This document shows, one piece after another, positions 13,672 to 37,260 of a stretch of DNA of 40,942 nt (the first letter of the stretch is position 1; every line of letters starts with the position of its first letter). A program made the position numbers and the translations under genes. Source of the DNA: an uncultured Candidatus Saccharibacteria bacterium (GTDB lineage: Bacteria; Patescibacteriota; Minisyncoccia; UBA6257; JACRHW01); the NCBI GenBank assembly GCA_964388055.1, contig CAYLXU010000001.1, forward strand, positions 17,120-58,061, read 5' to 3'. The notes under the pieces were generated by a model. The model did no database searches, had not been told where the DNA came from, and worked only from the letters and a program-made list of their open reading frames with translations.

Positions 13672-13686
13672 AATTCAAAAATCAAT

Positions 13687-14634
13687 ATGATTATTTTTCT
13701 CTACGGTCCGGATCGACACCGGCTTCTTAAAAAGAAAAAAGAGATTGTTGATGTGTACATGGCGCGCAACGTCACGGCTTTGGATTTTAAGAAATTCGAC
13801 TTTGAACGAAAAGAAGACGTTTTTGGTTTGGAAGGTTTTTTTAAAACGCATTCTATGTTTGCGACAAAGAAGCTCGCAGCCGTAGATAACTGTCTCGCGC
13901 GCGAGCATGAGCTTATGAGTTTTCTTGAGGACCTTAATGTTGCTGAAGATCCTATGCGTACTGTTCTCCTGTCTCATCATGGCGACCTTCCTAAAAAGGG
14001 CGCGTTTGTGGAATACATAGAAAACGGGGGAAATATAAAAACACAGAGCTTTTCATTGCCCACAAAGTCTACGACGAATAGTCTTATAAAAGACTGGTTA
14101 GATAAGACAGGTCTTAGCGCTGATGCGCGTACTGTGCTGGCGCTGGGAGAATATTATGGAAATGATTTTGGAAAGCTTGAGTTTGCAATGGAACGACTTT
14201 TGTTGTGGAAGCGCGCTAATTCATCCTTACATGTAACAGCGCAGGATTTGGAATTTTTCATTCCTGAAACTGAGGAGAATATTTTTACTTTTGTGGAGGC
14301 ACTTATTAAAAAGGACATTGAAGAAATTTACCGCATTATTCGAGCAACTACGTACGCAAAAAGAAATGTCTGGGATATTTTAAGGATCTTTGATTTCGAG
14401 TTAAAACAACTTGTGCTCGTGATGAGTGGTGACAAGAAGGGGATGGGTGGTCTTTCTGCCTGGGTGCGTGGCAAGTTAGAACGTATTACTAAATTGACTT
14501 CGGAGAGGGAGATTATAGCGTGGTACAACACAATAGCCTCGCTGGATGCGAGGCTAAAGAGAAGTGAAATAGGGGAAGATGAGGCGTTCGAAGAGATAAT
14601 ATCAACCCCGCTTCTGTTCGCCACTATTTCTTAG
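13687..14634 (+). CDS. holA: DNA polymerase III delta subunit-like (HolA), intact copy
   Basis: It has the MIIFLYGPDRHRLLKK N-terminus, a length of 315 aa, a helical C-terminal half, and a position 15 nt after polA. Family assignment is by overall pattern only. Confidence 0.6.
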   Translation: MIIFLYGPDRHRLLKKKKEIVDVYMARNVTALDFKKFDFERKEDVFGLEGFFKTHSMFATKKLAAVDNCLAREHELMSFLEDLNVAEDPMRTVLLSHHGDLPKKGAFVEYIENGGNIKTQSFSLPTKSTTNSLIKDWLDKTGLSADARTVLALGEYYGNDFGKLEFAMERLLLWKRANSSLHVTAQDLEFFIPETEENIFTFVEALIKKDIEEIYRIIRATTYAKRNVWDILRIFDFELKQLVLVMSGDKKGMGGLSAWVRGKLERITKLTSEREIIAWYNTIASLDARLKRSEIGEDEAFEEIISTPLLFATIS

Positions 14635-14857
14635 ATGAGGCAGTTTTTGCGGCTCGTGACTTAAGACGAGCAGCTTTGTTGCGATGAATTACGCCAGTTT
14701 TTACAGCCTTATCAATTGCTTTGTAGGCAAGAGGGAGTTCTTTTACAGAAGACATCTTTTTAAGCGCCGATTTAATGGCTGTCTTCTTTTGAATGTTGCG
14801 AGCTCTTCTTCTAAGGCTCTGGCGATATGCTTTTTGTGCTGATTTTGTATTCGGCAT
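14624..14857 (-). CDS. rpsT: 30S ribosomal protein bS20, copy 1
   Basis: MPNTKSAQKAYRQSLRRRARNIQKKTAIKSALKK is a typical bS20. An alternative start lies 3 codons upstream at 14866. Its 3' end overlaps the holA 3' end by 11 nt. Confidence 0.9.
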   Translation of the reverse strand: MPNTKSAQKAYRQSLRRRARNIQKKTAIKSALKKMSSVKELPLAYKAIDKAVKTGVIHRNKAARLKSRAAKTASSKK

Positions 14858-15025
14858 AGTAAACAAAATTTAAAAATCGAAACTACAATTTAAAACCAAA
14901 AAAAGTTTTTACTTGTTAATCTTAATAGTAAATACATTCGATCTTGTGTTAAGATATAACGTATTTTTCCGAAAAAGTAAAGGGGGTGGGTGGAGGTGAT
15001 AGTCTGACACAAGAATACATAAGAA

Positions 15026-15034
15026 TGTTATACT
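15026..15034 (+). promoter_or_regulatory. Extended -10 (TGtTATACT) placed 6 nt before the ATG (leaderless geometry), copy 1
   Basis: TG is at 15026-15027 and TATACT at 15029-15034, followed by ATATGT and ATG at 15041. A -35-like CTGACA is at 15004-15009. Confidence 0.4.
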
Positions 15035-15040
15035 ATATGT

Positions 15041-15730
15041 ATGTCACGCCGACTTAAATTACATCTTGACCCAAAAAAACGGTATCTTCAGGTGGCGTTA
15101 AATAGCACTCTCAAGGAGGCGCAGGATATTATTCGTCAATTGCCTGTGAGCGATCGTATTATCATTGAGGCGGGAACGCCACTTATTAAACAATATGGGG
15201 GAGAGGCAATACGGCAAGTTTATTCTTGGTGCAGAGAACATTTTTCCGGGTTTAACCCTTATGTTGTGGCAGACCTTAAAACAATGGATCGAGGGGCAAC
15301 AGAGGTAGAAATCGCTGCGAAGAGTGGTGCAAGCGCTGCAATTGCATTAGGTGTCGCTCCAATTGAGACGCTTAATTCATTTATAGACGCCTGTGAGGTG
15401 CGAGGTCTTGATGCAATGATTGATATGATGAACGTGGAGTTTCCTCTTTCTGTTCTCCGTGGACTCAAAAGAGTTCCCCCTGTCGTAATTTTACATCGGG
15501 GCGTTGATGAAGAATCTTTCAACAGAGAAAAACAGATACCTCTTCACGAAATCCGTCGTATTAAGGGGAACTATGATATCATGATTTCCATTGCGGGAGG
15601 GGATACATTACGAGAAGCGCAGCGGGCAATTTTTAACGATGCTGATATTGTAGTTATCTGGAAATCGGTGTTTAGTAGCACAAAAGATACTGCCCAACTG
15701 GTTTCCGACTTTTTAAAAGTAACAAAATAA
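15041..15730 (+). CDS. 3-hexulose-6-phosphate synthase-like protein (OMP decarboxylase superfamily), copy 1
   Basis: LQVALNSTLKEA...IIIEAGTPLIKQYGGEAI...VVADLKTMDRGATEVEIAAKSGASA...IAGG matches the HPS/KGPDC pattern (LQ[LV]ALD, E[VA]GTPL, ADLKT.D). Confidence 0.65.
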   Translation: MSRRLKLHLDPKKRYLQVALNSTLKEAQDIIRQLPVSDRIIIEAGTPLIKQYGGEAIRQVYSWCREHFSGFNPYVVADLKTMDRGATEVEIAAKSGASAAIALGVAPIETLNSFIDACEVRGLDAMIDMMNVEFPLSVLRGLKRVPPVVILHRGVDEESFNREKQIPLHEIRRIKGNYDIMISIAGGDTLREAQRAIFNDADIVVIWKSVFSSTKDTAQLVSDFLKVTK

Positions 15731-15750
15731 AATATATCTCCCGAAGAGGT

Positions 15751-16008
15751 TTACTTAAAATCGAACTCACCTTTTTCTGGTTTTTCTCCATCAACTTTGC
15801 TAAGAAGTATTCCTATCTCTTTCCCAATAGAAGAATATGAATCCATAAGCACCCCTTCGGATTCTATTGATAGTATTTTCATTCGAACACCACTGCTTAT
15901 AATCTCTTGTCCTTTTTGAAGGGTCCCTTTTTTAAGAACCCCTTCTACAAAATATCCTTCATCAAATTCCTTCAGGATATCTATGATTTCAACACGTGTG
16001 GTTTCCAT
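15751..16008 (-). CDS. Small hypothetical protein, possibly a translation-factor domain-2-like beta-barrel, copy 1
   Basis: It is 85 aa. GVLKKGTLQKGQEIISSGVRMKILSIESEG resembles the EF-Tu domain II pattern, but this is weak. Confidence 0.35.
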   Translation of the reverse strand: METTRVEIIDILKEFDEGYFVEGVLKKGTLQKGQEIISSGVRMKILSIESEGVLMDSYSSIGKEIGILLSKVDGEKPEKGEFDFK

Positions 16009-16016
16009 GGAGAGAT

Positions 16017-16715
16017 CTAGGGGGTGATGATGATGCCGATGTCGTTGGGTAGCTGAAGGGTGTAGGTTCCTATTTTAAACTTCGTGAGGGATTCGCGAAG
16101 TTTTTCTTTTAGTTCCTGTGGGGTAAGTGGAATAAGTAGTGGATCTTCTGTTCTAAAAAAAGACCCTTTTACTGTGGCAGGAAAGAGTATTTCATCATTT
16201 TCATTCCAGAGAACTGGTCGGTTGTCGTGCGTGTTTTGGAGGAGTGTTTGTATTTTTTTCCAATCCGAATCAAGGAATTCGTTTGTTTTCCAGTCGGCAT
16301 GTGTAAAAAAGACGCTCGTAACATTTTGGTCCATGATGGGTGGTCTGCAGAATATTACTGGTTTTGTGTTTGCAAACCTTTTCTCTACTTCATCTAGAAA
16401 GTGATCTTTGCAGTAAGAAGTTTCAATAATTTGGTCACTGGGATTGATAAAGCTGAGTGTAAAAAACGGCCTTCTCCACGGAAGAGATTCACCGTATCCG
16501 CATATTTTTGGTTTGTTTTTCCACCAACGGAAAAAAACAAAGAGAAGAATAACAGAAAAGAAGGAAATTTCGGAAAATGACTTTAGATCCAAAAATTGCT
16601 CTAAGCTCAAGGCGTTATAGACGGGTTCCATCATAAGGAACCAAACTATGCTAAAAAAGAAAAATAGTATGACGAATACGGCGATCTTGAACAACAAGAC
16701 GATCAATCCTAACAT
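16017..16715 (-). CDS. Hypothetical membrane protein (N-terminal TM helices plus soluble domain), copy 1
   Basis: Hydrophobic N-terminal helices (e.g. LGLIVLLFKIAVFVILFFFFSIVWFLMM, FFSVILLFVFF) precede a soluble domain. It starts 3 nt downstream of the SPFH gene. Confidence 0.5.
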   Translation of the reverse strand: MLGLIVLLFKIAVFVILFFFFSIVWFLMMEPVYNALSLEQFLDLKSFSEISFFSVILLFVFFRWWKNKPKICGYGESLPWRRPFFTLSFINPSDQIIETSYCKDHFLDEVEKRFANTKPVIFCRPPIMDQNVTSVFFTHADWKTNEFLDSDWKKIQTLLQNTHDNRPVLWNENDEILFPATVKGSFFRTEDPLLIPLTPQELKEKLRESLTKFKIGTYTLQLPNDIGIIITP

Positions 16716-16718
16716 GCG

Positions 16719-17489
16719 TTATTTTTTGGTTTTTAGGTAATCGGAAAGTGATTGGATGCCTTGGAGGAATTCGATAGGGAGGGCAAAAATAACTGTTTTT
16801 GAGGGATCTGGATTTATCTTCTCGATTGTTTCAAGTGTACGGAGTGAAAGCCCGCCGGGAACGGCGCTTAAACGTTCTGCTGCCTGGGAAAGTTTCTCTG
16901 CTGCTTCATATTCCCCTTGCGATTGAATAACGATTGCGCGTCGCTCGCGTTCTGATTCTGCCTGTTTTGCCATAATGCGTTTCATGTCTGCGGGGAGTTC
17001 AATGTCTTGGATTCTGATGTCAGTAATGTTGATACCCCACTCGGTAGTGATCATGTCAACGTCTTTTTTCATCTCCCCGGCAATCTTTTCTCGTTCTGAA
17101 AGAAGTGTATCAAGTTCGACGCCACCAATCACATCTCTAAGGGCCGCCTGTGCATACTGCACTATTGCGTTATAGTAGCTCCTAATTTTTAGTACTGCCT
17201 TGTCAGCATCAAGGACGTGGAAGTATACTACCGCGTTAATTCCTACGGGTACATTGTCTTTTGTAATGACTTCTTGTTGAGGAATTTCTGTGCTATTTAC
17301 ACGAACGTCTACAACGATCATTTCTTGAATACCAAAGAGGACGAAGATCCATGTGAGGCCCGGTCCTCGTACGCCAGCATACCTACCCAGCGTAAGCACA
17401 ACTCCGCGTTCGTATTCTTTCACAACACGTAATCCTCGTAGGAGGATGTACACAACAAAAAGAACAATAAAAGTTATAAAAACTTGCAT
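16719..17489 (-). CDS. SPFH/band-7 (stomatin-prohibitin) family protein, copy 1
   Basis: An N-terminal TM helix is followed by VVKEYERGVVLTLGRY...GPGL...VDVR...QEVITKDNVPV.INAVVYF and then a coiled A/E-rich tail. Confidence 0.85.
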   Translation of the reverse strand: MQVFITFIVLFVVYILLRGLRVVKEYERGVVLTLGRYAGVRGPGLTWIFVLFGIQEMIVVDVRVNSTEIPQQEVITKDNVPVGINAVVYFHVLDADKAVLKIRSYYNAIVQYAQAALRDVIGGVELDTLLSEREKIAGEMKKDVDMITTEWGINITDIRIQDIELPADMKRIMAKQAESERERRAIVIQSQGEYEAAEKLSQAAERLSAVPGGLSLRTLETIEKINPDPSKTVIFALPIEFLQGIQSLSDYLKTKK

Positions 17490-17721
17490 ATATGTTTAGT
17501 TAATTTGCTTATTATTAGTATAGCACACCTGGTTGTCACAATCTCGATAGATGGCGTGTGATCGACTTTTTATTGCCGGGCACATTTTACATTTAATGTT
17601 GTCCAAATTAGAGTATAGATAAGCAGAAATTCCTAACATCTAATTCTCAATTTCTAGCAAAACTTCAAATATAAAATTTTCAAATTGAAAATTTTTAAAA
17701 TTAGAAATTGAAAGTTGTAGT

Positions 17722-18294
17722 ATGATTTATTCTCTTTCAGGAAAAATTCGGTCTGCTCAAGCCAACGCAATAGTTATTGAGACAGAAGGGGGGGTCGGGT
17801 ATCTTGTGTTTGCCACCCCCGAAACAATATCTCGGGCCGTGATACACGAAAATGCGCGACTCTATACGTTTCTTCAAGTGCGTGAGGACGCACTTGAACT
17901 GTATGGTTTTATCTCAGAAGAAGAACTCGCTTTTTTTAGACTTCTTACTACGGTATCGGGTGTGGGCCCCAAGGCGGCGATGGCAATTTTGGGTGTTGCG
18001 GACATTCACACACTCCGTTCGGCAATCGCATCCGGAAAGGTAGAGATTTTGAGTCGTGCAGGAGGGATAGGAAAGAAAACAAGTGAAAGAATCATTGTTG
18101 AATTAAAAGAGAAGGTGGGAAAGAGCGATGAAAAGATTAAAGCATTTGAACTTGATCTTGATATACTCGAGGCGTTAAAATCTTTGGGGTATTCTGGGCA
18201 GGAGGCGCAGCGAGCAATTAAAGAGCTTTCTCCTGATATAATTAGTTTTTCAGAACGCCTTAAGGCTGCTCTAAAAATGCTCGGGAAGAAATGA
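17722..18294 (+). CDS. ruvA: Holliday junction DNA helicase subunit RuvA, copy 1
   Basis: MIYSLSGKI...GVGYLV...F.LLTTVSGVGPKAAMAIL...GIGKKTSERIIVELK shows the OB domain plus two HhH motifs. Confidence 0.9.
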   Translation: MIYSLSGKIRSAQANAIVIETEGGVGYLVFATPETISRAVIHENARLYTFLQVREDALELYGFISEEELAFFRLLTTVSGVGPKAAMAILGVADIHTLRSAIASGKVEILSRAGGIGKKTSERIIVELKEKVGKSDEKIKAFELDLDILEALKSLGYSGQEAQRAIKELSPDIISFSERLKAALKMLGKK

Positions 18295-19637
18295 GTATCT
18301 TGTATAGATACATGATAAACAAACTACGATCATACTATCATTTAATGTGGGCATATCTCAGTGCTTTTTTTTCTGGTTTTCCATCGAGAAGGCTTACGGT
18401 TATTGGTATCACTGGTACGAAGGGGAAGACGACAACAACTGAACTCATGGTCCATGTACTAAGAAGCGCGGGGCACAAGGTTGTTTCTTCATCTGGGCTC
18501 CAATTTCGTATAGATGAGAAAGTAGTTCCAAATGATTTTAAGATGACGATGCCTGGACGTGGTTTTCTCCAGCGTCTCCTGGCGCGAGGGGTAAAAGAGA
18601 GGTGTGATGTTGCGATTCTTGAGGTGACATCGGAGGGGCTGGCCCAGTCTCGGCACTCCTATATTAATTTTGATGTTGCGGTGTTTTTAGGTATTCATGA
18701 GGAGCATCTAGAGAGGCATGGGGGGTTTGAGGGGTATAGAAGGGCAAAGGAGATGCTATTCCAAGCGCTTCAAGAGTCAGAAAAAAAGAAGAAAATTGCA
18801 GTTATAAATACTGATGATGCACACGCTCCAGAGTTTGTAAAATATCAGGTAGACGAAGTGTGGGGATTTGGGTTTAAAGGAAATGGACTTAAAAAGGGCA
18901 TGAAAATGCTCAAGGCAGATGGTGTGCAGTCCACTGCCGCTGGTTTGCAGTTTTATATAAACGGCAATCGCATCCTTTCAAGAATTCTTGGAGAATTTAA
19001 TGTATATAATGTGCTTGCTGTAGTTGCAGTTGCGAAGGCTCTTCACATAGATGACGGAGTAATTCAAAGCGCTATCGAAACATTTTCTGGAATTCCAGGG
19101 AGAATGGAAGTAATTAATGGGAAAGGAATTCACGTGATTGTCGATTACGCGCATACGCCGGACTCTCTTGAATGGGTATATAAAGAGGCACGAAGAATTT
19201 TTAACCCTAGCTCGATGGTGTGTGTTCTTGGTGCGGCAGGGGGAGGAAGAGACACGTGGAAACGTTCGGTGTTTGGCGAACTTGCGGCAATGTACTGTGA
19301 TGAAATAATTCTTGCAAATGAAGACCCGTACGACGAAAATCCAGAAAGCATTTTACAAGATATTAAAAAAGGAATTGATCAGTTTTCAAATAGAAAAGTA
19401 AAGTTGTCGGCATCCTCATTTAATTCATTCCAAGAGACTTCAAAGACACATACGAATGCGCGGGTGCACATTATTTTGGAAAGGCGTGAGGCCATTAAAA
19501 AAGCGATATCTCTTGCGAAACCAGGCGATGTTGTGGTAATTACGGGAAAGGGGGGTGAACGATGGATGGTGCTTGCGGGGGGAAAGAAGATTCCGTGGGA
19601 CGACTCCGGTATTGTAAAAGAAGTAGTATATGCCTAG
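18291..19637 (+). CDS. murE: Mur ligase family protein, MurE-like, copy 1
   Basis: GITGTKGKTTT is the P-loop. EVTSEG, IHEEHLERHGGFEGYRRAKEMLF, DYAHTPDSLE and ANEDPYDENPE (compare MurE DNPR.E.P) are also present. The N-terminal domain is short. An ATGA overlap links it to ruvA. Confidence 0.65.
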   Translation: MSILYRYMINKLRSYYHLMWAYLSAFFSGFPSRRLTVIGITGTKGKTTTTELMVHVLRSAGHKVVSSSGLQFRIDEKVVPNDFKMTMPGRGFLQRLLARGVKERCDVAILEVTSEGLAQSRHSYINFDVAVFLGIHEEHLERHGGFEGYRRAKEMLFQALQESEKKKKIAVINTDDAHAPEFVKYQVDEVWGFGFKGNGLKKGMKMLKADGVQSTAAGLQFYINGNRILSRILGEFNVYNVLAVVAVAKALHIDDGVIQSAIETFSGIPGRMEVINGKGIHVIVDYAHTPDSLEWVYKEARRIFNPSSMVCVLGAAGGGRDTWKRSVFGELAAMYCDEIILANEDPYDENPESILQDIKKGIDQFSNRKVKLSASSFNSFQETSKTHTNARVHIILERREAIKKAISLAKPGDVVVITGKGGERWMVLAGGKKIPWDDSGIVKEVVYA

Positions 19638-20094
19638 TAGTGAAAAAGGATTTCTCAAGAAAGATCTCTATAAAAAGGTGTACAATGTTGCGCCTATTTT
19701 TTGCGTAGATATAGTTGCGGTGTGCGGTAACGAGTTTCTCTTAGGAAAAAGGGAGAACGAGCCTGAGAAAGGAAAATGGTTTCTCCCTGGTGGGCGTATT
19801 TATAAGATGGAACCTTTTGAAAAAGCAGTAGCGCGAAAAGTAAAAGAGGAGTTGGGTATTCGTGTTGCAAAAAAGGATTTCAAATTTCTAACGCTTGGAA
19901 CCGTGATGTCAAAAAAAGCTCCATTTGGTGATGGTCCGTTCCATGCAGCAATTGGAGTATATAAGGTAAATATAAAAAAGAAGGATCTAGTAAGGGCAGA
20001 TTCTCAACACTCAGAACTAAGATGGTTTACCACGATAGATAAAAAGTGGCACCCTTATGTGAAAGAATCTCTTCACGCAGCAGGATTCAAATAA
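19630..20094 (+). CDS. NUDIX hydrolase (GDP-mannose mannosyl hydrolase-like by context), copy 1
   Basis: The Nudix box is [24 protein letters not shown]. It lies immediately upstream of gmd-fcl, as gmm/wcaH does in colanic-acid type clusters. Confidence 0.7.
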
Positions 20095-20101
20095 GATACG
20101 T

Positions 20102-22040
<1,939 letters not shown>

Positions 22041-22062
22041 CGATTACATGTAAAACAATGTG

Positions 22063-22092
22063 AAACACGCCATCTGGATGGCGTGTTTTTTG
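22063..22092 (+). terminator. Intrinsic terminator after fcl, copy 1
   Basis: AACACGCCAT-CTGG-ATGGCGTGTT is followed by TTTT. The hairpin lies inside the first 21 codons of the track ORF 22060. Confidence 0.7.
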
Positions 22093-22122
22093 TGGTGTGC
22101 CGAGTTAGGATATAATGTAGTT

Positions 22123-24594
22123 ATGAATGGTAAATTTGGAAAACGAGAAACGGTTTTTGTTCACGAGTCGCCGGAAGAGCTTATCGCGAAAGCAAAAATT
22201 GGTGGTTCTTTAGATCTCTCTTTATTGAGAGACGATGAAAAGAAAGAGGTATTACGATGGTATCGAAAACACGCGGATGATGGGGGGGTGTTGGGATATG
22301 AAGAGGCTACCGACTTTTTGGAGGAGTTTGTGAGGCACGATATGGTGCGTGATGCAGAGCTTGTGGGCTACATTAAGTCGGGAAACGTAGATGAGCATCG
22401 TCTTGGTGTATATTTGGGAGAGGCGGTAGAGCCGGGGAGATATGTGCAATCTTTTTATAAGTGTTGGTGGGCGTTTGGCACGGAAAGACGGGAAGAGTTC
22501 ATTTATAAATTTACAAAACAACATCCAGAACACGCAGAAATGGTGGTTCCGTTTGTAGACTTAAGTCGGGTATACATTGAAGAGAGAAAAGATGGTTCTG
22601 TCTCTCGGAAATCGATTCTAGAGGCGCGTTTTAAACGTATCGGCGATGCGAAGCGTCTCATAGAGGCGTTTTTGGCATTTTGTGATATTGATGAAAACTT
22701 GAGTTCGCGCATGTCATTTGGGATGCGTTTTCACTCCCGTCTTATTGAGCATTATTACGATACAAACCGATCAGTACTATATCCATATCTTGGAGAGTTA
22801 TATGACAAGGGGTTTATTGATGATGGAAAAATTGAATCCCTCCTTGGTGCATATCCGTATTCCTCAGGAAATGTTGATTATACACAGGAGGAAGAAAAAG
22901 AGATGAAAGTGCTTGAGGGAAAAATAAAAAAACTTGGAAACCCTTCGGACCTCGGTAAGTATGGTCACCCATCGGAGTTTTTTCCTAGAAAGGACGCTCT
23001 CCGCCTTGAAGAATTGAGAGATCAGGGAAAGTTGCGCGCAACGGAATACTTACTTACAAATTTTATTGCACATCAAAAAAAATTTAATTTCGATGTGCAG
23101 AAATTTTTAGGTGAATGTATTGAGTGGCGTGTACCTATTTTTGCGTTTGTGGATCAACTCGGTTTGAGTAAAAGGGAGGTGGGCATGCTTATTGCCCGGG
23201 CGAGAGTAGAAAATGGTGAGTTGCCCTTTTCTTTGGCAAACCTGGAGGATCTGCGGACACTTTTGGAGTTTAACGCGAAACACAAAAATGAGGAGGGTGT
23301 GGATCTTAAGAAGATGGTGCTAGATCTTCTAAAAGAAGATTTTAAGACTCAAGGAGTAAATTTATTTGCCAATCGGGGCATTGTGTTGAGAATCGATAGG
23401 GTACTTTCCTTATTTGGTAAAGAGGAGGGAGAAAGATTGTTGGCGGCTATTACGAGCGATGCCTCGGAATTGTGGTTATTTAATCCAAGGTATGTGTTGG
23501 AACATAACCTGATGACGTTTGAGGAGCTTATTGATAAAACGTCTTCAAATGAATATGAGTATGTGAGACACCTTGGAAAGTTGATGTATCACGCAAGGCT
23601 TCTTGATGTGGAACATGGTGTGGGCATGCATCTTTCTAATGTTGTGCAAAGAGCGAAAAGGATTATAGATACAAGTCCGGCGTTGTTTTTTGATGAAGAT
23701 ACTTCTCATGTAATTAATCAGATTTTTAACAGGGAGGAACGCGCTCTTTTTGTGGCGAATCATTTAAAACCGCCTGTGGATTCTTCTTTTTTGGGGAAAC
23801 TTCTTGTTTCTCAGGACTGGTCCCCATTTCGAAATGTGTGTCACGATCTTCTTGTTTCAGAACCGATATTGTTTGCCGAGACGTTTCGTTATCATGAAAA
23901 AGGGATCTATAGTGTCCTGAGTCGGAAGGAGGTGCGAGAGCTTGTTCTCACGAATGCGGCGCACATGGATTTTGAACATCTTGCATGGAGCGATCAATTT
24001 AAACGAGAGCTTGTTTCCCACGCTGCATACCAAAAGAGGTTTTTTGAGTGTGTGGTTGAGAGGGGTAGCGCACAGGTTCTTGTAGAATTTATAGGTCGAA
24101 TGGAGTTTCCAGAAGTAGAGAATTGGGAACAAACCAAAAAACAAATTAAAGAAAACGAGGATCGTATACGAACAGAGCAAGAGAGGCTTGAAAGGGTAAG
24201 CCCGGTGTCCGATGGAGAAATGAGAGCGGAGATTAAAAAGAGAATTATTGATCTGATAGAGAAGACAAAGGAATTGAAGAGGAAAAAAAGTCTCGGTGGT
24301 GATATTGTTGAAACAAGAAGGCTTGTTGGGGAATTCAAGCGTACGGCAACGGAGGTGATGAGAGGTGTTGCGGAGAAAGAAAAATTTTTTATATTCAAGG
24401 ATGGTGTTTTGGATGTGCTTGGGGAGATGGGGCGGGAAATAGCTCGTGGAGAGATTAGAGAGTATATAGAAATTCACCCAGAAGTGTTAATGAGATCAAG
24501 GTTTCACCCAAGACCTAGGCTTGTGTTTCGTGAGGTGTTAGGTGACGAGATGTTTTCAGAGCTTTTCATTGCCCACAAAGTCTACGACGAATAG
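22123..24594 (+). pseudogene. 3'-truncated copy of the giant orphan gene, created by the duplication joint
   Basis: It is identical to 32636-35079 up to ...DEMFSELF. It then reads 8 junction-derived codons (IAHKVYDE) in a non-native frame of holA sequence and stops at 24594. Confidence 0.7.
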
Positions 24595-25370: not shown

Positions 25371-25553
25371 AGTAAACAAAATTTAAAAATCGAAACTACA
25401 ATTTAAAACCAAAAAAAGTTTTTACTTGTTAATCTTAATAGTAAATACATTCGATCTTGTGTTAAGATATAACGTATTTTTCCGAAAAAGTAAAGGGGGT
25501 GGGTGGAGGTGATAGTCTGACACAAGAATACATAAGAATGTTATACTATATGT

Positions 25554-26243
25554 ATGTCACGCCGACTTAAATTACATCTTGACCCAAAAAAACGGTATCT
25601 TCAGGTGGCGTTAAATAGCACTCTCAAGGAGGCGCAGGATATTATTCGTCAATTGCCTGTGAGCGATCGTATTATCATTGAGGCGGGAACGCCACTTATT
25701 AAACAATATGGGGGAGAGGCAATACGGCAAGTTTATTCTTGGTGCAGAGAACATTTTTCCGGGTTTAACCCTTATGTTGTGGCAGACCTTAAAACAATGG
25801 ATCGAGGGGCAACAGAGGTAGAAATCGCTGCGAAGAGTGGTGCAAGCGCTGCAATTGCATTAGGTGTCGCTCCAATTGAGACGCTTAATTCATTTATAGA
25901 CGCCTGTGAGGTGCGAGGTCTTGATGCAATGATTGATATGATGAACGTGGAGTTTCCTCTTTCTGTTCTCCGTGGACTCAAAAGAGTTCCCCCTGTCGTA
26001 ATTTTACATCGGGGCGTTGATGAAGAATCTTTCAACAGAGAAAAACAGATACCTCTTCACGAAATCCGTCGTATTAAGGGGAACTATGATATCATGATTT
26101 CCATTGCGGGAGGGGATACATTACGAGAAGCGCAGCGGGCAATTTTTAACGATGCTGATATTGTAGTTATCTGGAAATCGGTGTTTAGTAGCACAAAAGA
26201 TACTGCCCAACTGGTTTCCGACTTTTTAAAAGTAACAAAATAA
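25554..26243 (+). CDS. 3-hexulose-6-phosphate synthase-like protein, copy 2
   Basis: Identical to 15041-15730. The same TGtTATACT element is at 25539-25547. Confidence 0.65.
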   Translation: MSRRLKLHLDPKKRYLQVALNSTLKEAQDIIRQLPVSDRIIIEAGTPLIKQYGGEAIRQVYSWCREHFSGFNPYVVADLKTMDRGATEVEIAAKSGASAAIALGVAPIETLNSFIDACEVRGLDAMIDMMNVEFPLSVLRGLKRVPPVVILHRGVDEESFNREKQIPLHEIRRIKGNYDIMISIAGGDTLREAQRAIFNDADIVVIWKSVFSSTKDTAQLVSDFLKVTK

Positions 26244-26263
26244 AATATATCTCCCGAAGAGGT

Positions 26264-26521
26264 TTACTTAAAATCGAACTCACCTTTTTCTGGTTTTTCT
26301 CCATCAACTTTGCTAAGAAGTATTCCTATCTCTTTCCCAATAGAAGAATATGAATCCATAAGCACCCCTTCGGATTCTATTGATAGTATTTTCATTCGAA
26401 CACCACTGCTTATAATCTCTTGTCCTTTTTGAAGGGTCCCTTTTTTAAGAACCCCTTCTACAAAATATCCTTCATCAAATTCCTTCAGGATATCTATGAT
26501 TTCAACACGTGTGGTTTCCAT
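26264..26521 (-). CDS. Small hypothetical protein, copy 2
   Basis: Identical to 15751-16008. Confidence 0.35.
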   Translation of the reverse strand: METTRVEIIDILKEFDEGYFVEGVLKKGTLQKGQEIISSGVRMKILSIESEGVLMDSYSSIGKEIGILLSKVDGEKPEKGEFDFK

Positions 26522-26529
26522 GGAGAGAT

Positions 26530-27228
26530 CTAGGGGGTGATGATGATGCCGATGTCGTTGGGTAGCTGAAGGGTGTAGGTTCCTATTTTAAACTTCGTGA
26601 GGGATTCGCGAAGTTTTTCTTTTAGTTCCTGTGGGGTAAGTGGAATAAGTAGTGGATCTTCTGTTCTAAAAAAAGACCCTTTTACTGTGGCAGGAAAGAG
26701 TATTTCATCATTTTCATTCCAGAGAACTGGTCGGTTGTCGTGCGTGTTTTGGAGGAGTGTTTGTATTTTTTTCCAATCCGAATCAAGGAATTCGTTTGTT
26801 TTCCAGTCGGCATGTGTAAAAAAGACGCTCGTAACATTTTGGTCCATGATGGGTGGTCTGCAGAATATTACTGGTTTTGTGTTTGCAAACCTTTTCTCTA
26901 CTTCATCTAGAAAGTGATCTTTGCAGTAAGAAGTTTCAATAATTTGGTCACTGGGATTGATAAAGCTGAGTGTAAAAAACGGCCTTCTCCACGGAAGAGA
27001 TTCACCGTATCCGCATATTTTTGGTTTGTTTTTCCACCAACGGAAAAAAACAAAGAGAAGAATAACAGAAAAGAAGGAAATTTCGGAAAATGACTTTAGA
27101 TCCAAAAATTGCTCTAAGCTCAAGGCGTTATAGACGGGTTCCATCATAAGGAACCAAACTATGCTAAAAAAGAAAAATAGTATGACGAATACGGCGATCT
27201 TGAACAACAAGACGATCAATCCTAACAT
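26530..27228 (-). CDS. Hypothetical membrane protein, copy 2
   Basis: Identical to 16017-16715. Confidence 0.5.
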   Translation of the reverse strand: MLGLIVLLFKIAVFVILFFFFSIVWFLMMEPVYNALSLEQFLDLKSFSEISFFSVILLFVFFRWWKNKPKICGYGESLPWRRPFFTLSFINPSDQIIETSYCKDHFLDEVEKRFANTKPVIFCRPPIMDQNVTSVFFTHADWKTNEFLDSDWKKIQTLLQNTHDNRPVLWNENDEILFPATVKGSFFRTEDPLLIPLTPQELKEKLRESLTKFKIGTYTLQLPNDIGIIITP

Positions 27229-27231
27229 GCG

Positions 27232-28002
27232 TTATTTTTTGGTTTTTAGGTAATCGGAAAGTGATTGGATGCCTTGGAGGAATTCGATAGGGAGGGCAAA
27301 AATAACTGTTTTTGAGGGATCTGGATTTATCTTCTCGATTGTTTCAAGTGTACGGAGTGAAAGCCCGCCGGGAACGGCGCTTAAACGTTCTGCTGCCTGG
27401 GAAAGTTTCTCTGCTGCTTCATATTCCCCTTGCGATTGAATAACGATTGCGCGTCGCTCGCGTTCTGATTCTGCCTGTTTTGCCATAATGCGTTTCATGT
27501 CTGCGGGGAGTTCAATGTCTTGGATTCTGATGTCAGTAATGTTGATACCCCACTCGGTAGTGATCATGTCAACGTCTTTTTTCATCTCCCCGGCAATCTT
27601 TTCTCGTTCTGAAAGAAGTGTATCAAGTTCGACGCCACCAATCACATCTCTAAGGGCCGCCTGTGCATACTGCACTATTGCGTTATAGTAGCTCCTAATT
27701 TTTAGTACTGCCTTGTCAGCATCAAGGACGTGGAAGTATACTACCGCGTTAATTCCTACGGGTACATTGTCTTTTGTAATGACTTCTTGTTGAGGAATTT
27801 CTGTGCTATTTACACGAACGTCTACAACGATCATTTCTTGAATACCAAAGAGGACGAAGATCCATGTGAGGCCCGGTCCTCGTACGCCAGCATACCTACC
27901 CAGCGTAAGCACAACTCCGCGTTCGTATTCTTTCACAACACGTAATCCTCGTAGGAGGATGTACACAACAAAAAGAACAATAAAAGTTATAAAAACTTGC
28001 AT
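27232..28002 (-). CDS. SPFH/band-7 family protein, copy 2
   Basis: Identical to 16719-17489. Confidence 0.85.
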   Translation of the reverse strand: MQVFITFIVLFVVYILLRGLRVVKEYERGVVLTLGRYAGVRGPGLTWIFVLFGIQEMIVVDVRVNSTEIPQQEVITKDNVPVGINAVVYFHVLDADKAVLKIRSYYNAIVQYAQAALRDVIGGVELDTLLSEREKIAGEMKKDVDMITTEWGINITDIRIQDIELPADMKRIMAKQAESERERRAIVIQSQGEYEAAEKLSQAAERLSAVPGGLSLRTLETIEKINPDPSKTVIFALPIEFLQGIQSLSDYLKTKK

Positions 28003-28234
28003 ATATGTTTAGTTAATTTGCTTATTATTAGTATAGCACACCTGGTTGTCACAATCTCGATAGATGGCGTGTGATCGACTTTTTATTGCCGGGCACATTT
28101 TACATTTAATGTTGTCCAAATTAGAGTATAGATAAGCAGAAATTCCTAACATCTAATTCTCAATTTCTAGCAAAACTTCAAATATAAAATTTTCAAATTG
28201 AAAATTTTTAAAATTAGAAATTGAAAGTTGTAGT

Positions 28235-28807
28235 ATGATTTATTCTCTTTCAGGAAAAATTCGGTCTGCTCAAGCCAACGCAATAGTTATTGAGACAGAA
28301 GGGGGGGTCGGGTATCTTGTGTTTGCCACCCCCGAAACAATATCTCGGGCCGTGATACACGAAAATGCGCGACTCTATACGTTTCTTCAAGTGCGTGAGG
28401 ACGCACTTGAACTGTATGGTTTTATCTCAGAAGAAGAACTCGCTTTTTTTAGACTTCTTACTACGGTATCGGGTGTGGGCCCCAAGGCGGCGATGGCAAT
28501 TTTGGGTGTTGCGGACATTCACACACTCCGTTCGGCAATCGCATCCGGAAAGGTAGAGATTTTGAGTCGTGCAGGAGGGATAGGAAAGAAAACAAGTGAA
28601 AGAATCATTGTTGAATTAAAAGAGAAGGTGGGAAAGAGCGATGAAAAGATTAAAGCATTTGAACTTGATCTTGATATACTCGAGGCGTTAAAATCTTTGG
28701 GGTATTCTGGGCAGGAGGCGCAGCGAGCAATTAAAGAGCTTTCTCCTGATATAATTAGTTTTTCAGAACGCCTTAAGGCTGCTCTAAAAATGCTCGGGAA
28801 GAAATGA
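28235..28807 (+). CDS. ruvA: RuvA, copy 2
   Basis: Identical to 17722-18294. Confidence 0.9.
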   Translation: MIYSLSGKIRSAQANAIVIETEGGVGYLVFATPETISRAVIHENARLYTFLQVREDALELYGFISEEELAFFRLLTTVSGVGPKAAMAILGVADIHTLRSAIASGKVEILSRAGGIGKKTSERIIVELKEKVGKSDEKIKAFELDLDILEALKSLGYSGQEAQRAIKELSPDIISFSERLKAALKMLGKK

Positions 28808-30150
28808 GTATCTTGTATAGATACATGATAAACAAACTACGATCATACTATCATTTAATGTGGGCATATCTCAGTGCTTTTTTTTCTGGTTTTCCATCGA
28901 GAAGGCTTACGGTTATTGGTATCACTGGTACGAAGGGGAAGACGACAACAACTGAACTCATGGTCCATGTACTAAGAAGCGCGGGGCACAAGGTTGTTTC
29001 TTCATCTGGGCTCCAATTTCGTATAGATGAGAAAGTAGTTCCAAATGATTTTAAGATGACGATGCCTGGACGTGGTTTTCTCCAGCGTCTCCTGGCGCGA
29101 GGGGTAAAAGAGAGGTGTGATGTTGCGATTCTTGAGGTGACATCGGAGGGGCTGGCCCAGTCTCGGCACTCCTATATTAATTTTGATGTTGCGGTGTTTT
29201 TAGGTATTCATGAGGAGCATCTAGAGAGGCATGGGGGGTTTGAGGGGTATAGAAGGGCAAAGGAGATGCTATTCCAAGCGCTTCAAGAGTCAGAAAAAAA
29301 GAAGAAAATTGCAGTTATAAATACTGATGATGCACACGCTCCAGAGTTTGTAAAATATCAGGTAGACGAAGTGTGGGGATTTGGGTTTAAAGGAAATGGA
29401 CTTAAAAAGGGCATGAAAATGCTCAAGGCAGATGGTGTGCAGTCCACTGCCGCTGGTTTGCAGTTTTATATAAACGGCAATCGCATCCTTTCAAGAATTC
29501 TTGGAGAATTTAATGTATATAATGTGCTTGCTGTAGTTGCAGTTGCGAAGGCTCTTCACATAGATGACGGAGTAATTCAAAGCGCTATCGAAACATTTTC
29601 TGGAATTCCAGGGAGAATGGAAGTAATTAATGGGAAAGGAATTCACGTGATTGTCGATTACGCGCATACGCCGGACTCTCTTGAATGGGTATATAAAGAG
29701 GCACGAAGAATTTTTAACCCTAGCTCGATGGTGTGTGTTCTTGGTGCGGCAGGGGGAGGAAGAGACACGTGGAAACGTTCGGTGTTTGGCGAACTTGCGG
29801 CAATGTACTGTGATGAAATAATTCTTGCAAATGAAGACCCGTACGACGAAAATCCAGAAAGCATTTTACAAGATATTAAAAAAGGAATTGATCAGTTTTC
29901 AAATAGAAAAGTAAAGTTGTCGGCATCCTCATTTAATTCATTCCAAGAGACTTCAAAGACACATACGAATGCGCGGGTGCACATTATTTTGGAAAGGCGT
30001 GAGGCCATTAAAAAAGCGATATCTCTTGCGAAACCAGGCGATGTTGTGGTAATTACGGGAAAGGGGGGTGAACGATGGATGGTGCTTGCGGGGGGAAAGA
30101 AGATTCCGTGGGACGACTCCGGTATTGTAAAAGAAGTAGTATATGCCTAG
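28804..30150 (+). CDS. murE: Mur ligase family protein, MurE-like, copy 2
   Basis: Identical to 18291-19637. Confidence 0.65.
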   Translation: MSILYRYMINKLRSYYHLMWAYLSAFFSGFPSRRLTVIGITGTKGKTTTTELMVHVLRSAGHKVVSSSGLQFRIDEKVVPNDFKMTMPGRGFLQRLLARGVKERCDVAILEVTSEGLAQSRHSYINFDVAVFLGIHEEHLERHGGFEGYRRAKEMLFQALQESEKKKKIAVINTDDAHAPEFVKYQVDEVWGFGFKGNGLKKGMKMLKADGVQSTAAGLQFYINGNRILSRILGEFNVYNVLAVVAVAKALHIDDGVIQSAIETFSGIPGRMEVINGKGIHVIVDYAHTPDSLEWVYKEARRIFNPSSMVCVLGAAGGGRDTWKRSVFGELAAMYCDEIILANEDPYDENPESILQDIKKGIDQFSNRKVKLSASSFNSFQETSKTHTNARVHIILERREAIKKAISLAKPGDVVVITGKGGERWMVLAGGKKIPWDDSGIVKEVVYA

Positions 30151-30607
30151 TAGTGAAAAAGGATTTCTCAAGAAAGATCTCTATAAAAAGGTGTACAATG
30201 TTGCGCCTATTTTTTGCGTAGATATAGTTGCGGTGTGCGGTAACGAGTTTCTCTTAGGAAAAAGGGAGAACGAGCCTGAGAAAGGAAAATGGTTTCTCCC
30301 TGGTGGGCGTATTTATAAGATGGAACCTTTTGAAAAAGCAGTAGCGCGAAAAGTAAAAGAGGAGTTGGGTATTCGTGTTGCAAAAAAGGATTTCAAATTT
30401 CTAACGCTTGGAACCGTGATGTCAAAAAAAGCTCCATTTGGTGATGGTCCGTTCCATGCAGCAATTGGAGTATATAAGGTAAATATAAAAAAGAAGGATC
30501 TAGTAAGGGCAGATTCTCAACACTCAGAACTAAGATGGTTTACCACGATAGATAAAAAGTGGCACCCTTATGTGAAAGAATCTCTTCACGCAGCAGGATT
30601 CAAATAA
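30143..30607 (+). CDS. NUDIX hydrolase, copy 2
   Basis: Identical to 19630-20094. Confidence 0.7.
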
Positions 30608-30614
30608 GATACGT

Positions 30615-32553
<1,939 letters not shown>

Positions 32554-32575
32554 CGATTACATGTAAAACAATGTG

Positions 32576-32605
32576 AAACACGCCATCTGGATGGCGTGTT
32601 TTTTG
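32576..32605 (+). terminator. Intrinsic terminator after fcl, copy 2
   Basis: Identical to 22063-22092. Confidence 0.7.
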
Positions 32606-32623
32606 TGGTGTGCCGAGTTAGGA

Positions 32624-32629
32624 TATAAT
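32624..32629 (+). promoter_or_regulatory. TATAAT placed 6 nt before the giant-gene ATG (leaderless geometry)
   Basis: TATAAT is at 32624-32629, followed by GTAGTT and ATG at 32636. The same element is at 22111-22116 in unit 1. The -35 is weak. Confidence 0.4.
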
Positions 32630-32635
32630 GTAGTT

Positions 32636-35600
32636 ATGAATGGTAAATTTGGAAAACGAGAAACGGTTTTTGTTCACGAGTCGCCGGAAGAGCTTATCGC
32701 GAAAGCAAAAATTGGTGGTTCTTTAGATCTCTCTTTATTGAGAGACGATGAAAAGAAAGAGGTATTACGATGGTATCGAAAACACGCGGATGATGGGGGG
32801 GTGTTGGGATATGAAGAGGCTACCGACTTTTTGGAGGAGTTTGTGAGGCACGATATGGTGCGTGATGCAGAGCTTGTGGGCTACATTAAGTCGGGAAACG
32901 TAGATGAGCATCGTCTTGGTGTATATTTGGGAGAGGCGGTAGAGCCGGGGAGATATGTGCAATCTTTTTATAAGTGTTGGTGGGCGTTTGGCACGGAAAG
33001 ACGGGAAGAGTTCATTTATAAATTTACAAAACAACATCCAGAACACGCAGAAATGGTGGTTCCGTTTGTAGACTTAAGTCGGGTATACATTGAAGAGAGA
33101 AAAGATGGTTCTGTCTCTCGGAAATCGATTCTAGAGGCGCGTTTTAAACGTATCGGCGATGCGAAGCGTCTCATAGAGGCGTTTTTGGCATTTTGTGATA
33201 TTGATGAAAACTTGAGTTCGCGCATGTCATTTGGGATGCGTTTTCACTCCCGTCTTATTGAGCATTATTACGATACAAACCGATCAGTACTATATCCATA
33301 TCTTGGAGAGTTATATGACAAGGGGTTTATTGATGATGGAAAAATTGAATCCCTCCTTGGTGCATATCCGTATTCCTCAGGAAATGTTGATTATACACAG
33401 GAGGAAGAAAAAGAGATGAAAGTGCTTGAGGGAAAAATAAAAAAACTTGGAAACCCTTCGGACCTCGGTAAGTATGGTCACCCATCGGAGTTTTTTCCTA
33501 GAAAGGACGCTCTCCGCCTTGAAGAATTGAGAGATCAGGGAAAGTTGCGCGCAACGGAATACTTACTTACAAATTTTATTGCACATCAAAAAAAATTTAA
33601 TTTCGATGTGCAGAAATTTTTAGGTGAATGTATTGAGTGGCGTGTACCTATTTTTGCGTTTGTGGATCAACTCGGTTTGAGTAAAAGGGAGGTGGGCATG
33701 CTTATTGCCCGGGCGAGAGTAGAAAATGGTGAGTTGCCCTTTTCTTTGGCAAACCTGGAGGATCTGCGGACACTTTTGGAGTTTAACGCGAAACACAAAA
33801 ATGAGGAGGGTGTGGATCTTAAGAAGATGGTGCTAGATCTTCTAAAAGAAGATTTTAAGACTCAAGGAGTAAATTTATTTGCCAATCGGGGCATTGTGTT
33901 GAGAATCGATAGGGTACTTTCCTTATTTGGTAAAGAGGAGGGAGAAAGATTGTTGGCGGCTATTACGAGCGATGCCTCGGAATTGTGGTTATTTAATCCA
34001 AGGTATGTGTTGGAACATAACCTGATGACGTTTGAGGAGCTTATTGATAAAACGTCTTCAAATGAATATGAGTATGTGAGACACCTTGGAAAGTTGATGT
34101 ATCACGCAAGGCTTCTTGATGTGGAACATGGTGTGGGCATGCATCTTTCTAATGTTGTGCAAAGAGCGAAAAGGATTATAGATACAAGTCCGGCGTTGTT
34201 TTTTGATGAAGATACTTCTCATGTAATTAATCAGATTTTTAACAGGGAGGAACGCGCTCTTTTTGTGGCGAATCATTTAAAACCGCCTGTGGATTCTTCT
34301 TTTTTGGGGAAACTTCTTGTTTCTCAGGACTGGTCCCCATTTCGAAATGTGTGTCACGATCTTCTTGTTTCAGAACCGATATTGTTTGCCGAGACGTTTC
34401 GTTATCATGAAAAAGGGATCTATAGTGTCCTGAGTCGGAAGGAGGTGCGAGAGCTTGTTCTCACGAATGCGGCGCACATGGATTTTGAACATCTTGCATG
34501 GAGCGATCAATTTAAACGAGAGCTTGTTTCCCACGCTGCATACCAAAAGAGGTTTTTTGAGTGTGTGGTTGAGAGGGGTAGCGCACAGGTTCTTGTAGAA
34601 TTTATAGGTCGAATGGAGTTTCCAGAAGTAGAGAATTGGGAACAAACCAAAAAACAAATTAAAGAAAACGAGGATCGTATACGAACAGAGCAAGAGAGGC
34701 TTGAAAGGGTAAGCCCGGTGTCCGATGGAGAAATGAGAGCGGAGATTAAAAAGAGAATTATTGATCTGATAGAGAAGACAAAGGAATTGAAGAGGAAAAA
34801 AAGTCTCGGTGGTGATATTGTTGAAACAAGAAGGCTTGTTGGGGAATTCAAGCGTACGGCAACGGAGGTGATGAGAGGTGTTGCGGAGAAAGAAAAATTT
34901 TTTATATTCAAGGATGGTGTTTTGGATGTGCTTGGGGAGATGGGGCGGGAAATAGCTCGTGGAGAGATTAGAGAGTATATAGAAATTCACCCAGAAGTGT
35001 TAATGAGATCAAGGTTTCACCCAAGACCTAGGCTTGTGTTTCGTGAGGTGTTAGGTGACGAGATGTTTTCAGAGCTTTTTCGAGACCACATTAAAACGTT
35101 AGTATTTTGGAACGATCGATACGGAAGGGGGCTCTTTGAGATGCGAGATCTTCCTCTAGATCTTCAAAAAGACGCCGCCACCTTAAACCCCTTCTTTAAG
35201 ATTCATGAAAAGGATAGTTTGCAGGAAGACTACTACGCGCATTGTCTTAGATGGTTTTCTTCATACAGTTTTTACCCGATTTTTGAAAAGCGTCTCATGC
35301 AAATTGCAAGGGAGCAGCAAAATGTTTTTGGTCAACAAACATCGCTTAAGTCCTTTACTCCAAACAAAGAATTTCATTCTCTTGGAAACTCTTTACTTCT
35401 TCTTGAGTCTTCCCCATTCGCGCGTCAGTACAGAGATGACATACTTGCACTCTCACCAAGGGAACAGGAGGTTACAATTTCTCTCTTTTCCTTCTTATCT
35501 TTTTATCATCTCGACGAACATGTGGTGTCACACCTTGAGGGAAAGAGCTTTGATTCTGCTCAGCAGGAGGCCCATGATGTGATAAGCCGCTTCTTACAAA

Positions 35601-36925: not shown

Positions 36926-36956
36926 AAAAGGACGGCTTATGCCGTCCCGTCTTTTC
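36924..36956. terminator. Bidirectional intrinsic terminator between the giant gene and the Ubl gene
   Basis: AAAAAA-GGACGGC-TTAT-GCCGTCC-CGTCTTTTCG. The stem is at 36930-36947, with an A-run on one side and a T-rich tail on the other. Confidence 0.7.
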
Positions 36957-36969
36957 GTTATTGTTATAA

Positions 36970-37188: not shown

Positions 37189-37260
37189 ATTCTCACCTCC
37201 TTCCATGCAGATTTTAGGTATAAGAACTTTGTATGTTATAGCATTCTGCCCAACGAACTG

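Follow-up and report, generated by a model that had tools for sequence, protein, structure and literature searches.

In Salmonella and E. coli, RecA-dependent tandem duplications arise at long repeats, among them rrn operons, IS elements and REP sequences. Another class is known from the E. coli lac system, where 31 junctions of duplications and amplifications were, with one exception, direct repeats with 4–15 bp of identity, and where unit lengths include 10.88 and 20.33 kb (PMC1428787). Homologous recombination has been called at repeats of at least 35 bp (bioRxiv 10.64898/2026.05.22.727201). In the current study, a stretch of DNA of 40,942 bp (the window) from an uncultured Parcubacteria (Patescibacteria/CPR) bacterium was analyzed, and its one long repeat is likely to represent a real, recent, microhomology-mediated duplication in which 10,513 bp of the chromosome were repeated head to tail.

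Self-comparison of the window showed that positions 14044–24566 and 24557–35079 agree over 10,523 positions with 0 mismatches, at an offset of 10,513; only one stretch of 20 or more identical bases exists at this offset. A repeat search of the window returned the spacing of 10,513 again and no other long repeats. The copies are direct and head to tail, and copy 2 begins on the base right after copy 1, with nothing between them. The unit's first 10 bases, CAGAGCTTTT, occur for a third time at 35070–35079, so that the overall pattern is R-D-R-D-R, the trace expected of template switching or unequal exchange at a pair of short direct repeats. The flanks (1–14043 and 35080–40942) are unique. The original prediction had described a perfect duplication of about 10.5 kb between sequences that occur once, and had proposed a self-comparison to establish 100 percent identity; the perfect duplication was confirmed in all these respects. 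The copies, the breakpoints (which lie in holA and in a giant orphan gene) and the 26-mers that span them are as follows.

14044–24556, copy 1 of the duplication unit, 10,513 bp, 100% identical to copy 2
24557–35069, copy 2 of the duplication unit, 10,513 bp, 100% identical to copy 1
14044–14053, plus strand, left parental 10-bp direct repeat CAGAGCTTTT, the left breakpoint, starting at holA codon 120
24557–24566, plus strand, novel joint with the microhomology CAGAGCTTTT, giant-gene codon 815 joined to holA codon 120
35070–35079, plus strand, right parental 10-bp direct repeat CAGAGCTTTT, the right breakpoint, within the giant gene at codons 812–815
26-mer spanning the joint, GATGTTTTCAGAGCTTTTCATTGCCC
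26-mer spanning the left boundary, AAAAACACAGAGCTTTTCATTGCCC
26-mer spanning the right boundary, GATGTTTTCAGAGCTTTTTCGAGACC

Across the joint the sequence reads GATGTTTT CAGAGCTTTT CATTGCCCAC, as had been quoted originally, and the 10-mer starts at three places in the window (14044, 24557 and 35070). In the de-duplicated sequence it occurs only at the two parental sites. When 3 million random pairs of breakpoints were drawn from the de-duplicated sequence, microhomology of at least 10 bp was found at a frequency of 2.1e-5, indicating that the 10-mer at the joint is not there by chance. This junction repeat is the most informative feature of the locus. It had gone unremarked in the earlier description of the window.

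At the outer boundaries identity ends after 10 bp, and the repeat search of the window detected no direct repeats of at least 35 bp there. The 10-bp repeat is far shorter than the 35 bp or more at which homologous recombination is called, and formation by that route is therefore unlikely. A tandem insertion of a mobile element was rejected, there being no integrase or transposase among the genes scanned or pre-annotated and no terminal inverted repeats, att sites, tRNA target or long end repeat in the window, and the breakpoints lying inside holA and the giant gene. No recombinase-type domain was present among the genes scanned or pre-annotated, and neither long flanking or terminal repeats nor tRNA genes nor Rfam RNAs were found in the window. 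The domain scans and the repeat search thus agree with the earlier statement that transposases, integrases and terminal repeats are absent.

The unit holds ten complete genes and two partial ones, where 11 duplicated genes had been counted originally; the gene identities given at that time were upheld by Pfam and NCBIfam searches. The genes doubled, together with a hairpin, are the following.

14624–14857 (second copy 25137–25370), minus strand, rpsT, ribosomal protein S20
15041–15730 (second copy 25554–26243), plus strand, OMPdecase/HUMPS-family gene, like 3-hexulose-6-phosphate synthase (HPS-like), from Pfam/NCBIfam
15751–16008 and 16017–16715 (second copies 26264–27228), minus strand, two orphans of 85 aa and 232 aa
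16719–17489 (second copy 27232–28002), minus strand, SPFH/Band 7 gene
17722–18294 (second copy 28235–28807), plus strand, ruvA
18291–19637 (second copy 28804–30150), plus strand, MurE-subfamily Mur ligase, TIGR01085 at 336.6 bits against a cut-off of 257.3
19630–20094 (second copy 30143–30607), plus strand, Nudix hydrolase gene
20102–21106 and 21108–22040 (second copies 30615–32553), plus strand, gmd and an fcl-like epimerase/reductase gene, GDP-fucose pathway
22063–22088 (second copy 32576–32601), plus strand, terminator-like hairpin 3' of fcl, parting fcl from the giant gene

The content of the block is ordinary, consisting of housekeeping and cell-envelope genes. The match of the Mur ligase begins at profile position 71 and leaves the N-terminal domain unmatched. 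The hairpin at 22063–22088 is palindromic and was placed on the minus strand by the scan; read on the plus strand, it precedes a run of six T. For the 85-aa and 232-aa orphans no family matches were obtained in searches that included Pfam and NCBIfam.

Each of the two genes at the breakpoints is present as one intact and one truncated copy:

13687–14634, plus strand, intact holA, DNA polymerase III delta subunit, 315 aa, straddling the left boundary, TIGR01128 at 93.8 bits against a cut-off of 80
24542–25147, plus strand, 5'-truncated holA remnant, 201 aa, residues 120–315 after 5 chance codons contributed by the giant-gene side
22123–24594, plus strand, truncated giant gene made by the joint, 823 aa, native residues 1–815 followed by IAHKVYDE and a stop
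32636–36925, plus strand, intact giant orphan gene, 1429 aa, straddling the right boundary

The N-terminal delta domain is missing from the holA remnant, which is probably non-functional. Its protein is on record for the NCBI source contig and also for Logan contig SRR5011275_147344. The truncated giant gene retains the giant gene's own upstream region, and both it and the holA remnant may be expressed. The source record uses other starts, giving an intact giant protein of 1444 aa and, from an earlier start, a truncated one of 838 aa. The giant protein had no match in Pfam, NCBIfam, PADLOC or PDB sequence searches, and exact protein look-ups of the giant and fusion forms (1450, 1429, 844 and 823 aa) and of the predicted 624-aa fragment of the right flank returned none on record. 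For annotation, the deposited 201-aa 'holA' and 838-aa 'giant' proteins should be read as by-products of the duplication and not as independent genes.

A close relative carries the block once. Logan contig ERR15087765_20641 (81,981 bp) is 99.5–99.7% identical to the window and collinear with it through both boundaries. It has CAGAGCTTTT at both parental sites, at 10120–10129 in holA and at 20631–20640 in the giant gene, of which it holds a 1429-aa orthologue. This contig shows the unduplicated parental state in the 99.6%-identical ERR15087765 strain. In a more distant species (76% amino acid identity in the Mur ligase), the core genes were also present once and in unchanged order. The left-flank genes that were looked up were found only in ERR15087765, except that tsaE was also found in the sister run SRR5011273. 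A protein search with holA for N-terminal fragments ending at the boundary (predicted 129 aa) yielded none; it returned full-length homologues with at most 55% identity and the 201-aa remnant.

The joint was also found in an independent assembly. Logan contig SRR5011275_147344 (2073 bp) corresponds to window positions 24537–26609 at 100% identity and crosses the joint, reaching 20 bases in one direction and about 2 kb in the other. The evidence for the joint is thus an assembled contig, not individual reads; the contig is recorded in two samples, which may not be independent libraries. It begins at the first joint-specific 31-mer, as expected of a k=31 graph in which the end of the unit branches to the joint and to the right flank. 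It is unbroken at 24557, where the path from the left flank should merge, indicating that the connection from the 5' part of holA to the unit was missing or pruned in the SRR5011275 graph. No other assembly spanning a boundary was found among SRR5011273, SRR22387849, JGI 3300029893 and GCA_020724985.1, and patterns of 26–30 nt for the left boundary or joint and for the right boundary or joint had no match in the genome and metagenome contig sets.

These data bear on whether the repeat was produced by computation. According to the original prediction, the repeat was either a recent amplification or an artefact, and would be an assembly error if no read or read pair supported the joint and the coverage per copy were half that of the flanks. 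Since an independent assembly of the raw reads crosses it, the joint is present in the reads and is not a scaffolding artefact, and by the original criterion a pure assembly error fails as an explanation. A purely computational origin, in which redundant contigs were merged end to end or the block was duplicated by a scaffolder, would account for exactly two copies that are perfectly identical. However, the raw-read assembly has the joint and the 20 bases and 2 kb beside it at 100% identity, and an end overlap of 10 bp has a chance of about 2e-5; mainstream assemblers are not known to merge contigs whose ends share just 10 bp. This origin is effectively refuted by SRR5011275_147344 and is extremely improbable. 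Formation of the joint in vitro is also very unlikely. It would require template switching at the 10-bp repeat during whole-genome amplification or library PCR, with enough copies made to be assembled. Chimeras from multiple displacement amplification (MDA) do form at short microhomologies, and every piece of evidence for the joint traces to the runs of one project. Against this, MDA chimeras are mostly inverted and not direct, the data resemble bulk metagenomes (Logan contig numbers above 147,000; an IMG metagenome id), two samples are on record with the joint contig, and a lone chimeric molecule would not normally pass the abundance filters of two assemblers.

A joint that is real but belongs to a minority form has a small but appreciable probability. 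The dominant chromosome would then be single-copy and the loop written into the consensus contig by the assembler, and the joint would come from a subpopulation, from a higher-order amplification or from an excised 10.5-kb circle, the last stemming from reciprocal exchange between the same 10-mers. Spontaneous tandem duplications do segregate at low frequency in bacterial populations, the near-identical ERR15087765 strain is single-copy, and it is the presence of the joint in reads that was shown, not its abundance. Run SRR5011275 hints at a T/C polymorphism at 16140, where the window shows none in either copy; the run probably holds two alleles at this site, which speaks for a heterogeneous population. 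On the other hand, the joint survived two different pipelines, those of the NCBI record and of Logan. Logan discards k-mers seen only once, and its graph kept the path through the joint and lost the path from the left flank into the unit, which speaks against the joint as the less common of these paths.

The part of the original prediction that invoked a real event was thus borne out by the joint-crossing contig and the single-copy strain, but its statement that zero divergence means a very recent event is unsafe. In short-read graph assembly, two copies are one graph edge walked twice. Zero divergence is weak evidence, since copies written on two passes of an assembler through one repeat are bound to be identical. 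If the window comes from such an assembly, A-R-J-R-B is just the shortest path to include the joint edge, and what is actually there could be a minority variant or a block in more than two copies. The count of exactly two copies is inferred, as is any statement on how common the duplication is in the population.

For the preferred reading, a real and recent duplication, the following origin is proposed. The parental chromosome would have carried two CAGAGCTTTT 10-mers 10,513 bp apart, one at holA codon 120 and one at codons 812–815 of the giant gene. A homology-poor, illegitimate event would have paired the downstream 10-mer of one sister chromosome with the upstream 10-mer of the other, by a replication template switch, by mis-annealing of sister-chromosome strands or by unequal exchange. 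The product would be R-D-R-D-R with one novel joint and ten complete genes at double dose. It is only the length of the repeat, 10 bp, that points to a RecA-independent formation by template switching or strand annealing, and the molecular mechanism as a whole is a candidate one.

If the note's estimate of a genome of about 1 Mb is right, the block amounts to about 1% of it. The window documents a segmental duplication in a genome of the CPR/Patescibacteria, lineages for which gene loss is the usual topic. A literature search for tandem duplications in Patescibacteria metagenome-assembled genomes found nothing relevant, and a search by run and assembly accessions found nothing. It is doubtful that the duplication has reached high frequency or fixation in a natural population of an ultra-small-genome Patescibacterium, with selection maintaining it. 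If it had, the benefit would be a higher dose of genes for envelope sugars and peptidoglycan (MurE-like ligase, Nudix, gmd and fcl) or, alternatively, the separately expressed new 823-aa N-terminal fragment of the giant protein. Gene birth by duplication would then have been caught in the act, in a lineage better known for the reduction of its genome. The results also show that reads are not indispensable for judging a suspiciously perfect repeat in a metagenome-assembled genome. The evidence used for this purpose was the microhomology at the junction, a single-copy strain of nearly identical sequence and an independent assembly across the joint.

The locus is a new instance of a well-known type of event, and mechanistically it adds nothing to the picture established in E. 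coli and Salmonella. It shares with concatemers of prophages and integrative and conjugative elements (ICEs) a head-to-tail block of several kb, but differs from them in its core housekeeping content and in having both breakpoints within genes. A contig with two copies, exactly two and perfectly identical, is also what loop traversal or mis-resolution of a repeat in a de Bruijn graph produces. Such a walk still requires a real joint edge, however, and the joint was confirmed in an independent assembly of raw reads, so that an artefact could extend at most to the number of copies and their identity, and not to the rearrangement itself. With the RecA-dependent duplications between long repeats it has in common the R-D-R-D-R product, the doubled gene dose and an instability through homologous recombination between the copies, whereas its flanking repeat is only 10 bp. 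The closest likeness is to the E. coli lac system of Slack et al. 2006 (PMC1428787), with its direct head-to-tail arrangement, single novel junction, short shared identity, unit length of about 10–20 kb and lack of a mobile element. Those events were selected in the laboratory under starvation, on an F' plasmid, and expanded to many copies (PMC1428787), whereas the duplication described here lies on the chromosome of an uncultured Parcubacteria population, in at least two copies.

Comparison of the window with itself at an offset of 10,513 gave one unbroken identity run (14044-24566 equal to 24557-35079, 10,523 positions, 0 mismatches), and because the run is single and mismatch-free, two complete units are present head to tail:

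14044-24556, unit copy 1, 10,513 bp (self-comparison)
24557-35069, unit copy 2, 10,513 bp (self-comparison)

Directly after copy 2 the unit's opening ten bases occur a third time, so that the 10-mer CAGAGCTTTT was found in the window at 14044, 24557 (the novel joint) and 35070. The left boundary reads ...AAAAACA/CAGAGCTTTT/CATTGCCC... and the right boundary ...GATGTTTT/CAGAGCTTTT/TCGAGACC..., and the sequence to either side of the 10-mer is unrelated. The self-comparison and the 10-mer positions bore out the coordinates, period and joint sequence of the original prediction; its count of 11 duplicated genes was replaced, on annotation of the unit, by ten complete and two partial genes:

13687-14634, holA, unit start at codon 120 (TIGR01128, 93.8 bits against a cut-off of 80)
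rpsT, complete in unit
OMPdecase/HUMPS-family gene, hexulose-phosphate synthase (HPS)-like, complete in unit
two orphans of 85 and 232 aa, complete in unit
SPFH/Band 7 gene, complete in unit
ruvA, complete in unit
18291-19637 and 28804-30150, MurE-subfamily ligase, complete in unit
Nudix hydrolase, complete in unit
gmd, complete in unit
fcl-like epimerase/reductase, complete in unit
32636-36925, giant orphan gene, 1429 aa, unit end at codon 815

The repeat search found no further long direct or inverted repeats in the window, and searches of the window for tRNA genes and Rfam families found none.

As any tandem duplication does, this one leaves each boundary gene intact once, holA in copy 1 and the giant gene in copy 2. 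Two by-products arise at the joint: a holA remnant (residues 120-315), 201 aa when read from a GTG at 24542, which is a fortuitous start, and a truncated giant ORF (22123-24594) comprising native residues 1-815 followed by IAHKVYDE and a stop. Since a terminator-like hairpin 3' of fcl (22063-22088) suggests a separate promoter region for the giant gene, the truncated ORF could plausibly be expressed. A TATAAT lies directly past this hairpin, 8 nt 5' of the giant-gene ATG, suggesting a very short or absent leader. The giant protein has no predicted hydrophobic segments, no match in Pfam, NCBIfam or PADLOC and none of significance among PDB sequences; its orthologue in the sister strain is also 1429 aa long. 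The MurE-subfamily ligase, translationally coupled to ruvA upstream and Nudix downstream, matches TIGR01085 only from profile position 71 onward, and Pfam gave no match to an N-terminal domain of the Mur ligases; candidate identities are a MurE shortened at its N-terminus and a paralogue that acts on a different substrate.

A strain with the block in single copy was located by exact-protein look-up of holA and fcl, on an 81,981-bp Logan contig from run ERR15087765. This contig is 99.5-99.7% identical to the window and collinear with it (left flank, polA, holA ... fcl, giant gene, ThiF, JAB). It carries CAGAGCTTTT at both parental sites (contig positions 10120 and 20631), 10,511-10,513 bp apart when small indels are allowed for. 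Inside the unit, about 50 positions separate it from the window, whereas none separates the two window copies. Its arrangement is that expected of the parent, and exchange between its two 10-bp direct repeats would give the window structure. For the Mur ligase of the window, the nearest match among species representatives was a groundwater Parcubacteria MAG (76% aa identity), and the remaining matches were all Patescibacteria/CPR. In the 76%-identity species, the HPS-like gene, the 85-aa orphan, SPFH, ruvA, Mur ligase, Nudix, gmd and fcl each occur once, in unchanged order.

Among 3 million random breakpoint pairs in the de-duplicated sequence, junction ambiguity of at least 10 bp arose at a frequency of 2.1e-5, and CAGAGCTTTT was restricted to the two parental sites. 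The 30 kb contains about 774 direct-repeat pairs of at least 10 bp, an ample supply of such substrates, of which the event used one. The junction is homology-guided, and random software mis-joining would not yield it.

The 201-aa remnant, which spans the joint since its first five codons derive from the giant-gene side, is on record twice, in the 62,483-bp NCBI source contig and in Logan. The original prediction had looked to support for the joint outside the assembly, and this came from Logan contig SRR5011275_147344 (2073 bp, recorded in two samples), an exact match to 24537-26609. It starts 20 bases 5' of the joint, at the first joint-specific 31-mer; given the k-mer size of 31 used by Logan, this implies that in SRR5011275 the unit end has two continuations, the joint and another that is presumably the right flank.

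Short-read graph assemblers cannot span a 10.5-kb repeat. If the contig came from such an assembler, the shortest walk through the joint edge is left flank-unit-joint-unit-right flank. The absence of divergence noted in the original prediction stands as 0 mismatches; if the contig was short-read-assembled it is uninformative on age, because the copies would be one edge written twice. At 16140 (equal to 26653) another SRR5011275 Logan contig (L089) has T>C relative to the window, as does an IMG 3300029893 contig (L088). As L089 begins at 16110, exactly the first 31-mer to cover that base, both alleles appear to coexist in SRR5011275; the difference could be strain variation or a copy 1/copy 2 difference collapsed by assembly. 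A duplication made purely in silico is very unlikely, because the joint was recovered outside the deposited assembly, and is the least probable of the alternatives; an in-vitro chimera formed at the microhomology is also highly improbable.

An unlikely explanation, though a weightier one than these, is that a minority variant, a higher-order amplification or an excised circle was assembled into the consensus.

SRR5011275_147344 is unbroken at 24557, where the left-flank path was expected to merge, and the left-flank connection is therefore absent or pruned in the graph of that run. Since the SRR5011275 contigs are short (1.4-4.7 kb), low coverage may explain the missing merge; an excess of the joint over the left boundary, meaning more than two copies, would produce the same picture. 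No boundary-spanning contigs were found in the same organism's other assemblies (SRR5011273, SRR22387849, IMG 3300029893 and GCA_020724985.1).

Several features lie outside these arguments. L088 (JGI 3300029893 Ga0246236_1005414) matches 18149-14667 at 99.94% and departs from the window near 14667, within the rpsT 3' end; its divergent part (3484-3816) encodes a LepA/EF4-like GTPase N-terminus (…IIAHVDHGKTTL…) where the window has holA. Either the contig is a chimera whose parts meet within a conserved stretch, or a co-occurring strain has another gene order. An A-rich motif (…AAAATTCAAAAATCAA[A/T]ATG) recurs in intergenic spacers (3920-3948, 5157-5185, 10994-11022, 13661-13689), and one copy terminates at the start codon of holA; the motif may mark promoters or translation-initiation regions in the lineage. 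The spacer that separates ruvB from a T2SS-E/PilB-type ATPase gene contains a 27-nt inverted repeat (6274-6300 and 6412-6438, 96% complementary, arms 111 nt apart). An apparent operon, perhaps a ubiquitin-like or sulfur-carrier conjugation set, occupies 36970-40054 and is adjoined by a small HTH_17 (excisionase-type) gene (40222-40467):

within 36970-40054, minus strand, protein of unknown function, 428 aa
within 36970-40054, minus strand, Prok-JAB protein, 267 aa
within 36970-40054, minus strand, ThiF/E1-like protein, 235 aa (weak PADLOC 'E1-E2' matches)
within 36970-40054, minus strand, protein of unknown function, 72 aa

These data are best read as a tandem duplication that is real, recent and microhomology-mediated, with two apparently identical copies, in a population of uncultured Parcubacteria. 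As for mechanism, the best support is for an illegitimate event guided by microhomology between sister chromosomes, in which a nascent strand may have switched template at the 10-mers or, alternatively, annealing and unequal exchange may have taken place there. Two 10.5-kb copies, once in place, provide substrate for RecA-dependent loss or for further expansion; that they persist at assembly-level frequency may point to a recent origin, a bottleneck or dosage selection. The duplication is a fresh example of an already well-understood type of event. In E. coli, 31 junctions of duplications and amplifications were direct repeats with one exception, with a single novel joint, 4-15 bp of shared identity and unit lengths that include 10.88 and 20.33 kb (PMC1428787). 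The present duplication matches this class in its direct orientation, one novel joint, short microhomology and kb-scale unit, and its 10-bp repeat is well under the 35 bp at 92% identity at which a recent classifier calls homologous recombination (bioRxiv 10.64898/2026.05.22.727201).
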